IMG/VR virus record: IMGVR_UViG_3300049893_000724
Coordinates: 64,001-128,000 of that record
Source of the DNA: a virus
DNA: 64,000 bases
Strand: one strand, 5' to 3'
Under the pieces are notes generated by a model. That model had not been told where the DNA came from, made no database searches, and saw only the letters and a list, made by a program, of their open reading frames with translations. Made by a program: the position numbers and the translations under genes. Shown here in pieces: positions 5,005 through 6,566 of the stretch. How positions within the stretch are numbered: position 1 is the stretch's first letter; each line of letters starts with the position of its first letter.

Positions 5005-5439
5005 TCATTGTAAATGAGATCTTAACTGCCAAACAAATTTACCGTGAGACTCCATTAAATCTTGAACTAGATTTGCAGTTGCGTATTGCTTTTGCCCTTC
5101 AGACTCTTCTGAAATCTCCTGCATTAGTTCACAAAACTTTTCGTTGTTCTCAAGCAGTTCCTGAAGCATTTCTTTTGCTCCTGTTGAACTTGCTGCTTCT
5201 TTAATCTGAGTAACCTCAAGCATTCTTGAAAGAGAACTGAGAGGTTTTACATTCAGATAACGCATATGTTCTGAGAGACGATCAATCTCTTCAAACATAG
5301 TTTCGTACTGTCCACCAAAGAGTTGATGAAGTTGAGTGAAATCTTCACCAACTACATTCCAATGAAATGCCCAAGTTTTATGAAACAAAACAAAAAGTGA
5401 TGACTGAGCATCACTCAAGAGTTTAAATAGTTTTTCCAT
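5005..5439 (-). CDS. dps: Dps / ferritin-like DNA-protection protein
   Basis: HWNVVGEDFTQLHQLFGGQYETMFEEIDRLSEHMRYL ferroxidase signature; C-terminal HGKFVWQL. Confidence 0.85.
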   Translation of the reverse strand: MEKLFKLLSDAQSSLFVLFHKTWAFHWNVVGEDFTQLHQLFGGQYETMFEEIDRLSEHMRYLNVKPLSSLSRMLEVTQIKEAASSTGAKEMLQELLENNEKFCELMQEISEESEGQKQYATANLVQDLMESHGKFVWQLRSHLQ

Positions 5440-5467
5440 TATACTCTTTTTTTAAATATTTATCAAG

Positions 5468-5539: not shown

Positions 5540-5543
5540 GTGT

Positions 5544-5647
5544 TATGTTTCCAGTAGCCACTCTTATCTCCCATAAGGAAGATGTAGGCATCGAACCTAC
5601 AAAGGACAGTCTCTAACGAAACCGCTGGGAATTCCACCCAGAACATA
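5544..5647 (-). ncRNA. Candidate tRNA-like multi-hairpin RNA of unknown family
   Basis: Closing stem TATGTT/AACATA enclosing four hairpins, one a T-arm GTAGG-TTCGATG-CCTAC; no normal cloverleaf. Confidence 0.5.
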
Positions 5648-5672
5648 GTTGGAAGAACCAAAGTACTTCCAA

Positions 5673-5744
5673 CTCCCCCTCCTGGATTCGAACCAGGGAC
5701 CAAATGATTAACAGTCATCTGCGCTACCGCTGCGCCAAGGAGGA
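5673..5744 (-). tRNA. tRNA-Asn(GTT)
   Basis: TCCTCCTTGGCGCAGCGGTAGCGCAGATGACTGTTAATCAT...GTTCGAATCCAGGAGGGGGAG. Confidence 0.95.
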
Positions 5745-5832
5745 ATGAGGAGAAGGAGTGCTCTTGGGCGAACCCGCAGGATCACTTCTCCTATTGGCGT
5801 CTTTCTAGGCTATCTGCCTAGCGACTACCAAG

Positions 5833-5947: not shown

Positions 5948-5982
5948 ATGACAATTATAAGGTGTGGATTTATAATTGTCAA
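5948..5982. promoter_or_regulatory. Palindromic, overlapping bidirectional sigma70-like promoter pair
   Basis: Minus: TTGACA(5982-5977)-17-TATAAT(5959-5954). Plus: ATGACA(5948-5953)-17-TATAAT(5971-5976). 12-bp perfect inverted repeat. Confidence 0.6.
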
Positions 5983-5983
5983 G

Positions 5984-6065
5984 TGTCGATGAAAGGACTT
6001 GAACCTTCACAGAATACTCTACTGGAACCTAAACCCAGCGCGTCTACCAATTCCGCCACATCGAC
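5984..6065 (-). tRNA. tRNA-Leu(TAG)
   Basis: GTCGATGTGGCGGAATTGGTAGACGCGCTGGGTTTAGGTTCCAG + variable arm + GTTCAAGTCC. Confidence 0.95.
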
Positions 6066-6367
6066 TAATTACGAAGTTCTACGTGAACCTCACGATGACA
6101 GTTAGCACAAAGTATAGAACACTTGTCTAACTCTGCTTGTATTTTTTTCCAACTCCAAAGTCGCATCTTAGTCCAAGATGCTTCTTTTTCTATTGGATTA
6201 AGATGGTGAAATTCTAAAACATCTGGATACTTATCATATCCACATCTTTCACATTTTCCACCTTTGTATTCTACGGCATCAAGTTTTCTTTGACGCCATC
6301 TTTGAATACAATACTGATTGAAGGCAGATTTCTCTTCCTCCGTCATCAGTTTATATGGTTTACTCAT
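6065..6367 (-). CDS. Free-standing HNH endonuclease
   Basis: CERCGY...LEFHHLNP...LCANCHREVH (Zn-finger HNH). Confidence 0.85.
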   Translation of the reverse strand: MSKPYKLMTEEEKSAFNQYCIQRWRQRKLDAVEYKGGKCERCGYDKYPDVLEFHHLNPIEKEASWTKMRLWSWKKIQAELDKCSILCANCHREVHVELRN

Positions 6368-6480: not shown

Positions 6481-6566
6481 AAAAGACCTCCTGGTTTGTG
6501 CATCGTTGAGAGGCATAGGAGGGGCAGGACTTACACGGAGTTTGGACCCCCGCTGCCTATGAGAGT

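Follow-up and report, generated by a model that had tools for sequence, protein, structure and literature searches.

Phage tRNA (transfer RNA) clusters also give rise to stable RNAs that are not tRNAs, and we know of no function for any of them, starting with species 1 and 2 of T4. In the permuted tRNA genes of Cyanidioschyzon merolae and the two-piece transfer-messenger RNA (tmRNA) genes of cyanobacteria, the T arm is followed by the 3' acceptor strand, a short linker and the 5' acceptor strand. In the YrlA RNA of Mycobacterium smegmatis, the T arm is followed by a closed acceptor stem of 7 base pairs (bp), which RNase P cuts in vitro; the RNA is also cleaved and given a CCA tail in vivo, a behavior attributed to that 7-bp stem (PMC4201824). 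Chen et al. (2014) also observed that the junctions of tRNA dimers resemble YrlA and suggested a tRNA origin for it (PMC4201824). Here, we analyze a 64,000-nucleotide (nt) stretch of the IMG/VR record IMGVR_UViG_3300049893_000724, referred to as the window, and describe an RNA element encoded between its tRNA-Asn and tRNA-Val genes. Our findings suggest that this element is probably a non-decoding tRNA mimic, derived from a tRNA-Ser(GCU)/tRNA-Ile(GAU) junction, selected as a module of the tRNA array and acting on tRNA-recognizing proteins.

A structured RNA between tRNA-Asn and tRNA-Val

The window forms part of a 184-kb record, 88% complete, of a T4-like cyanophage (Kyanoviridae); among named phages, it is closest to DSL-LC03 and DSL-LC02, which are lake Synechococcus phages, and to S-SRM01. 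The element lies on the minus strand at 5540-5672, in a 133-nt spacer where neither ARAGORN nor Rfam called anything between the two tRNAs, and its conserved core spans about 100 nt (5544-5647). Every component listed in an earlier reading of the sequence alone was found on the minus strand and in the order given there: TATGTT, hairpins H1 and H2, TCCTTT, the T arm (H3), hairpin H4, the tail and AACATA. The parts and their flanking genes, in the direction of transcription, are the following.

5672/3-5745, minus strand: tRNA-Asn(gtt), called by ARAGORN and Rfam
5649-5672, minus strand: 5' hairpin module TTGGAAG...CTTCCAA, relic of the ancestral tRNA-Ser acceptor 5' strand and D arm
5642-5647, minus strand: 5' strand (TATGTT) of P1, the closing stem of the core, which was not inherited from a tRNA helix
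5625-5641, minus strand: H1, CTGGG-TGGAATT-CCCAG, homologue of the tRNA-Ser anticodon arm (covariance model alignment to Ser-Ile junctions)
5607-5624, minus strand: H2, CGGTTTC-GTTA-GAGACTG, a 7-bp stem with a tetraloop, homologue of the long variable arm of tRNA-Ser
5601-5606, minus strand: single-stranded joiner TCCTTT, an insertion relative to tRNA-Ser, nearly invariant
5584-5600, minus strand: H3, the T arm GTAGG-TTCGATG-CCTAC, recognized from the sequence
5566-5583, minus strand: H4, ATCTTCC-TTAT-GGGAGAT, a sealed acceptor-like stem of 7 bp that continues the T stem without interruption (5 + 7 = 12 bp)
5550-5565, minus strand: unpaired 16-nt tail AAGAGTGGCTACTGGA, degenerate remnant of the tRNA-Ile D arm (covariance model alignment) and candidate partner of the T loop
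5544-5549, minus strand: 3' strand (AACATA) of P1, from sequence, covariation and RNAalifold
5540-5543, minus strand: ACAC, 3' of P1, reaching the RNase P site of tRNA-Val
5467/8-5539, minus strand: tRNA-Val(tac), called by ARAGORN and Rfam

The spacer has a folding energy of -47.1 kcal/mol (z = -4.24), and none of 200 dinucleotide shuffles was as stable. This fold, the consensus structure of the homologues and the lack of any gene call bear out the proposal of a structured, tRNA-like, unannotated RNA, and the T arm is canonical, as had been stated. The hairpin preceding the core had been described as having 9 bp; it is present, but only 7 bp covary in relatives (TTGAAAG/CTTTCAA, TTGATAG/CTATCAA and TTAGAAG/CTTCTAA for the outer stem), and the outer 2 bp use the last bases of tRNA-Asn. 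This 5' hairpin is confined to copies located downstream of tRNA-Asn.

Covariation and conservation of the fold

Homologues were collected from IMG/VR and metagenomes using an exact 20-mer of the core, two degenerate patterns and a covariance model (R1). The 20-mer occurs in 67 IMG/VR contigs, diverged copies were added by the covariance model, and about 80 IMG/VR and 22 metagenome contigs together provide 55 distinct core sequences. For 45 homologues, RNAalifold independently yielded H1-H4 and the inner 4 bp of P1, thus returning the hairpins of the sequence-only reading and, along with double compensatory changes, confirming the covariation it had called for. Pairing is found in 96.4% of cells in these 45 sequences vs 40-52% when the partners are slid, 10 pairs are changed on both sides, and none of 500 shuffles attains any of five measures.

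When the metagenome copies are included (55 sequences), every helix shows at least one compensatory double change. Four of the six P1 pairs are changed on both sides (GGTT/AACC, TGTT/AACA, CATT/AATG, CGTT/AACG), whereas H1, the most conserved part, has a single compensatory change, from U-A to C-G, in one contig (L260). H2 has C-G to U-A changes at two pairs, together with 6-bp variants capped by UUCG or UUAG; H3 has changes at two pairs, U-A to C-G and G-C to A-U (for example, GCAGA...UCUGC in L158); and H4 has U-A to C-G changes at two pairs. Variation is concentrated in P1 and the H2 and H4 caps, while H1 with its loop (mean column entropy 0.05 for the stem and 0.20 for the loop), the UCCUUU joiner (0.15), the T loop, H4 and the 16-nt tail (0.20) are conserved in sequence.

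Several other pairings were evaluated and rejected. The minimum free energy fold of the single sequence replaces H1 by a helix GGUGG/CUACU plus AUUC/GAGU, which has no doubly changed pair and an A-U pair broken in 33 of 36 homologues. A D-stem-like pairing of tail GAAC with 5' GTTC shows one-sided or wobble changes alone and is incompatible with the covarying P1, and a pairing of tail CTAYTGG with CCAGYAG at the H1/H2 boundary leaves the commonest base mismatched, C opposite A. Dimerization by kissing H1 loops at their AAUU palindrome was discarded because the palindrome is lost in UGGAACU variants.

Origin from a tRNA-Ser/tRNA-Ile junction

The best non-self matches of the covariance model, in four contigs, are all adjacent tRNA-Ser(gct)-tRNA-Ile(gat) junctions (25-32 bits, E ~3e-5 to 6e-7), and one of the four is a complete genome of 213 kb in which the element is present as well. 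The same Ser-Ile junction is picked by blastn (79% identity over 38 nt, E = 0.001), and an alignment of the full unit of contig L054 (the core with its 5' hairpin) to tRNA-Ser(gct) reaches z = 7.7. In copies located after tRNA-Asn, the 5' hairpin (GAAAGGATTGG) can be matched to the 5' half of tRNA-Ser (GGAGGATTGG).

H4 is composed of the 3' acceptor strand of Ser, the inter-tRNA spacer and the 5' acceptor strand of Ile. Its 5' strand and loop (CATCTTCC-T-TAT) correspond to the Ser 3' acceptor strand, discriminator and 2-3-nt spacer (CATCCTCC-G-TAT), its 3' strand GGGAGAT is identical to the Ile 5' acceptor strand at 7/7 positions, and the junction follows the pattern CATCYTCC-K-TAT-GGGAGAT. 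The A.C mismatch expected in the H4 of the ancestral junction is an A-U pair in the element, and P1 has no counterpart in either tRNA-Ser or tRNA-Ile. Judged by these alignments, the element demonstrably descends from a tRNA-Ser(GCU)/tRNA-Ile(GAU) gene junction.

This ancestry changes two points of the sequence-only reading. That reading saw no anticodon/acceptor order; the arms do stand in tRNA order, homologous to the anticodon, variable and T arms and the 3' acceptor strand of Ser(GCU), followed by the 5' acceptor strand of Ile(GAU). It also took the GG-containing loop of H1 for a D-like loop that could form a tRNA elbow. Covariance model homology identifies this loop as the former anticodon loop, which excludes it as a D loop and would place it far from the T loop. 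For the elbow contact, the GG of the 3' tail, the remnant of the Ile D loop, is a better candidate. In all three sequences of one clade, a U to G change in the T loop co-occurs with a G to A change in the tail, which is only a hint of contact between the two. A degenerate tRNA, one of the outcomes that the sequence-only reading had named as counting against it, is what the origin shows, while the covariation favors a selected RNA.

Distribution and selection

Among 7 genomes that share the Dps-like neighbor gene, the 100-nt core is 93.3% identical, or about 92% once the ascertainment 20-mer is left out, vs 75.5% at the third codon positions of Dps, 89% at all Dps positions and 79% in tRNA-Val. 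The flanks of the core cannot be aligned between contexts. At the Dps locus, 14 of 80 close relatives have the element, no diverged copy was detected in the others by the covariance model, and many relatives have tRNA-Asn and tRNA-Val 0-3 nt apart, with the spacer absent. The element is thus an optional module: a genome either lacks it or has it in conserved form.

Members of the family are abundant among lake cyanophages. A blastn search of two element versions against 50,697 GenBank phage records gave no match, save one of 25 nt in the T arm (E = 0.09), and the H1 pattern produced 39 matches in 185,579 prokaryote genomes, approximately the chance expectation, none of which was confirmed by the covariance model. 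We found no published description of the family, which may be contained in the IMG/VR structured-RNA catalogue (PMC10690425).

With a tRNA-Ser(GCU) and a tRNA-Ile(GAU) gene from these same arrays as its ancestors, the element could be a decaying, functionless junction pseudogene whose apparent conservation reflects closely related contigs. Its clear homology to both tRNAs, the abundance of gains, losses and degenerate tRNAs in these arrays and its absence from most close relatives would all fit such a relic. The element is not decaying, however: the core is 93% identical vs 75% at third codon positions, exceeding the conservation of synonymous sites; the gained P1 and the sealed H4, which have no such form in the tRNA ancestors, are maintained by compensatory changes; the ancestral A.C mismatch has been repaired to A-U; and the core remains intact across many flanks that cannot be aligned. 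We consider a pseudogene quite unlikely; selection has probably maintained the element as a gene-like module within the phage tRNA array.

Genomic contexts and transcription

The intact core is found in at least six flanking contexts, always in the orientation of the tRNAs. Upstream of it lies tRNA-Asn at about 34 nt or tRNA-Gly at 24 nt, and downstream lie Leu(caa) at +3/4, Val at +6, Thr at roughly +50, His at roughly +100, or further conserved hairpin modules. In one class, the core starts 4-9 nt past a TTGACA-17-TAATAT or TTGACA-17-TAACAT promoter, and the copies in L158 and L172 are distant from any tRNA.

Part of this arrangement would suit a cis-acting structural spacer that prevents mispairing of the pre-tRNAs, positions the cuts of RNases P, E and Z or shields the 5' end of the transcript, with no function in trans. 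The element always runs in the same direction as the tRNAs, with a gap of 24-35 nt from the preceding tRNA and, often, of 3-6 nt to the following one; P1 lies at the predicted transcript start in promoter-proximal copies; and the arrays of relatives contain several other conserved hairpin modules. A spacer, though, would need nothing beyond stable stems, and in the element sequence conservation extends to the H1 loop, the joiner, the T loop and the unpaired 16-nt tail; the loops of H2 and H4, by contrast, vary freely. Many relatives have Asn and Val 0-3 nt apart and no spacer between them, and some copies (L158, L172) are far from tRNAs. A purely structural role in cis is, in our assessment, unlikely.

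Two classes, which account for about 30% of the contigs, have an HNH endonuclease gene whose end lies at the core or reaches 36 nt into it, so that the 5' boundary of the core may be a homing site. The HNH genes involved here are the following.

L112:2294-2854: HNH gene at the element
L073:2050-2616: HNH gene at the element
6065-6367, minus strand of the window: HNH gene in the same tRNA array

In the L073 class, the HNH frame enters P1/H1 by 36 nt and reaches its stop codon, TAG, in the H2 loop.

These genes, including the one in the array of the window, raise the question of whether the core is a by-product of homing, either as the recognition or insertion site of the HNH enzyme or as a sequence homogenized among phages by co-conversion. 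Two abutting HNH proteins are only 49% identical vs about 94% for their cores (L054 vs L073/L083-type; L112 vs L073), and homing co-conversion thus fails to explain the conservation. About 70% of the copies have no adjoining HNH gene, co-conversion does not account for compensatory base changes, and the status of target would explain the insertion of an HNH gene at that site but not the conservation of the sequence. An origin of the conservation in homing is, consequently, highly improbable.

One promoter is predicted upstream of the element in the window.

5954-5982, minus strand: perfect sigma-70-type promoter TTGACA-17-TATAAT, from its consensus match alone

Read from 5982 to 5954, it would drive a transcript containing tRNA-Gly, tRNA-Asn, the element and tRNA-Val. 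The promoter is held in a palindrome, so the plus strand also reads as a promoter. Downstream, the Dps-like gene (5005-5439) has a near-consensus promoter, TTGATA-17-TATAAT, at 5438-5466 on the minus strand, overlapping the 3' end of tRNA-Val. In three freshwater or aquatic studies, the element is covered by RNA-library contigs, some of them bridging it to tRNA-Asn or tRNA-Val; the ends of these contigs follow strain variants rather than RNA ends.

Comparison with known RNA families

No copy of the element matched a family in the Rfam comparison that the sequence-only reading had proposed. The tRNA model (RF00005) gave no match to the element in the window even at E <= 10 and none at the gathering score in eight homologous loci. 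ARAGORN called no tRNA at the element in the window, and a poor 90-nt "tRNA-Phe(gaa)" appears in the L073 class only. The likeness to a tRNA lies in the T arm, with its 5-bp stem and GTTCRANNC-type loop, from which minority homologues differ. Unlike in a tRNA, the 7-bp acceptor-like stem is closed by TTAT and not built from free RNA ends, and the H1 loop UGGAAUU (consensus YGNAAYU) has G at 33 and U at 37, lacking both U33 and a purine at 37. Without U33, this loop makes decoding impossible.

Similarly, the YrlA model (RF02553) scored 17.3 bits vs a cut-off of 69 (E = 0.99), in a match that borrows the D arm of tRNA-Val. Both RNAs are tRNA-derived mimics in which the T arm runs directly into a closed acceptor-like hairpin, with a 7-bp closed stem in M. 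smegmatis YrlA as in the element. The element differs from YrlA in having neither a D-arm hairpin (the 16 nt after H4 are unpaired in the consensus) nor a Ro60-binding helix, and in being open at the position of the D stem instead of the anticodon stem, with the homologues of the anticodon and variable arms retained.

T4 rnaC and rnaD (species 1 and 2; RNAs C and D) resemble the element in being about 120-140 nt long, in not being tRNAs and in being encoded within a phage tRNA cluster that contains a homing endonuclease gene; the element likewise lies in a phage tRNA cluster, on the tRNA strand, and release by tRNA processing is presumed for both. T4 rnaC ends in a T-arm-like hairpin. In the T4 tRNA region, the covariance model with its filters off had no match over rnaC or rnaD, and blastn against the phage collection gave none.

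The order of parts in permuted tRNA genes and two-piece tmRNA genes is also that of the element, which carries a G3.U70-type wobble as in tmRNA. The element could, accordingly, specify a circularly permuted two-piece RNA that is chargeable: RNase P would open the H4 loop, the upstream piece would be trimmed and CCA-tailed, and alanyl-tRNA synthetase (AlaRS, through G3.U70) or seryl-tRNA synthetase (SerRS, through the variable arm) would charge it. Besides the order of T arm, 3' acceptor strand, linker and 5' acceptor strand, this possibility draws on the 7-bp stem with an invariant G at +1 and U at -1 in 47 of 55 sequences, on the G.U at acceptor-like position 3:70 in 52 of 55 although the neighboring pairs covary, and on M. 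smegmatis YrlA, which is cleaved and CCA-tailed in such a manner (PMC4201824). On the other hand, the G.U follows by construction from U70 of Ser and G3 of Ile, the discriminator position varies (U in 48, G in 4, A in 3), cleavage of the element is predicted only, and, unlike tRNA or tmRNA, the element has no usable anticodon loop, as UGGAAUU cannot decode, and no tag reading frame; ARAGORN called no tmRNA in the window. We regard a chargeable RNA as very unlikely. If it were real, an aminoacylated non-decoding RNA might tie up AlaRS, SerRS or EF-Tu, supply an aminoacyl-transferase, or work at the ribosome as a minimal tmRNA-like factor.

Proposed mode of action

The reading that we favor is a tRNA mimic that, with its acceptor end sealed and no working anticodon, can imitate a tRNA without decoding; as transcribed, it would be neither chargeable nor decoding. 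The Gly-Asn-element-Val transcript would be processed at the 3' end of tRNA-Asn and by RNase P at tRNA-Val, and the element is indeed placed where these two cuts, proposed in the sequence-only reading, would free it. In the predicted L shape, H3 and H4 would form a 12-bp acceptor/T arm, and P1 and H1, joined without a gap, would form the other arm, in the way a D stem stacks on an anticodon stem. P1 would take the place of the D stem and H2 that of the variable arm, while the 16-nt tail would join H4 to P1 and its GG would meet the T loop. The result would be a look-alike of a class II tRNA, sealed at its acceptor end, open at the position of the D loop and unable to decode, that would occupy a protein recognizing the shape of a tRNA.

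Cyanobacterial RNase P is not known to require an encoded CCA. From the precedent of M. smegmatis YrlA, the invariant G at +1 and the U at -1 in 47 of 55 sequences, RNase P is predicted to cleave one bond, between 5573 and 5572, which lies in the H4 loop directly 5' of the invariant G.

Engaging tRNA-recognizing proteins as a mimic is the most likely function. The final role may be that of a decoy for a host nuclease that targets tRNAs, or the capture of an enzyme that processes or modifies them.

Several observations weigh against this mimic. TROVE (Ro60), RtcB and a CCA-adding enzyme, any of which might have hinted at a pathway, were not found in the 184-kb phage record, which is 88% complete, and about four-fifths of the closest relatives at the Dps locus do without the element, which is therefore dispensable. 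Minority T loops (UGCGAUA, AUCGAUG) depart from the tRNA consensus and weaken strict mimicry. The sequences are closely alike, with a mean column identity of 91%, so that most compensatory changes rest on 1-5 sequences, several on 1-3 and that of H1 on one, and the shuffle statistics are inflated by this relatedness. Finally, the RNA-library contigs, being assembled, reveal nothing of ends, strand or level and may include DNA; they provide weak support for transcription and none for processing.

Other features of the tRNA arrays

Conserved hairpin modules with covarying stems lie beside the element in L160, L173, L033 and L005, downstream of it. One example combines CACTGC-CCTCTAAT-GCAGTG with GCAGGA-AGTGTC-TCCTGC; further modules include AAATCCTAAG...CTTAGG with GGGGA...CCCC, and GTAGGTGCCAAAACC.... 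The second hairpin of the CACTGC module looks, by eye, like the spacer between Gly and Asn in the window (5746-5831, minus strand; GGAGAAGTGATCCTGCGGGT).

Atypical or decaying tRNAs abound in the arrays. In a dozen contigs (L054:2826-2898, L058, L070, L094 and others), ARAGORN reports a "tRNA-His" that lies about 100 nt 3' of the element and has the anticodon ATG; it also labels several tRNAs "???". The tRNA-Asn of L073, L093 and L102 is degenerate, and its T arm, GTAGGGGCAGTACCTAC, is odd. The 250-kb contig L172 holds a group I intron (Rfam RF00028, 53.6 bits) at L172:5051-5248, about 180 nt 3' of a diverged element copy that has no tRNA beside it.

In bacteria, the abiF RNA motif accompanies abortive-infection abiF genes. 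This motif (Rfam RF03085) is present in the window at 6486-6522 on the minus strand, directly upstream of tRNA-Arg, the first tRNA of the array, and recurs at the head of other arrays (L112:636-672, L033:2030-2066, L054:363-399, L156:5766-5802), with 45-54 bits vs a cut-off of 37. By analogy, the orphan phage motif could be an antitoxin-like counter-defense RNA. A wcaG RNA motif (Rfam RF01761, 104 bits) lies 3' of the tRNA region, at 1505-1600 on the minus strand of the window and at L033:6231-6331.

Implications for phage RNA biology

The element offers a clean, datable example of the birth of a non-tRNA phage RNA, in which the junction of two tRNAs was sealed as a hairpin and closed by a new stem. 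YrlA shares this architecture, and, considering the tRNA origin that Chen et al. suggested for it, tRNA-dimer junctions may be a recurrent source of tRNA mimics. If the partner of the element is a defense nuclease that targets tRNAs or a tRNA-processing enzyme, the family would represent a new kind of RNA-based phage counter-measure.

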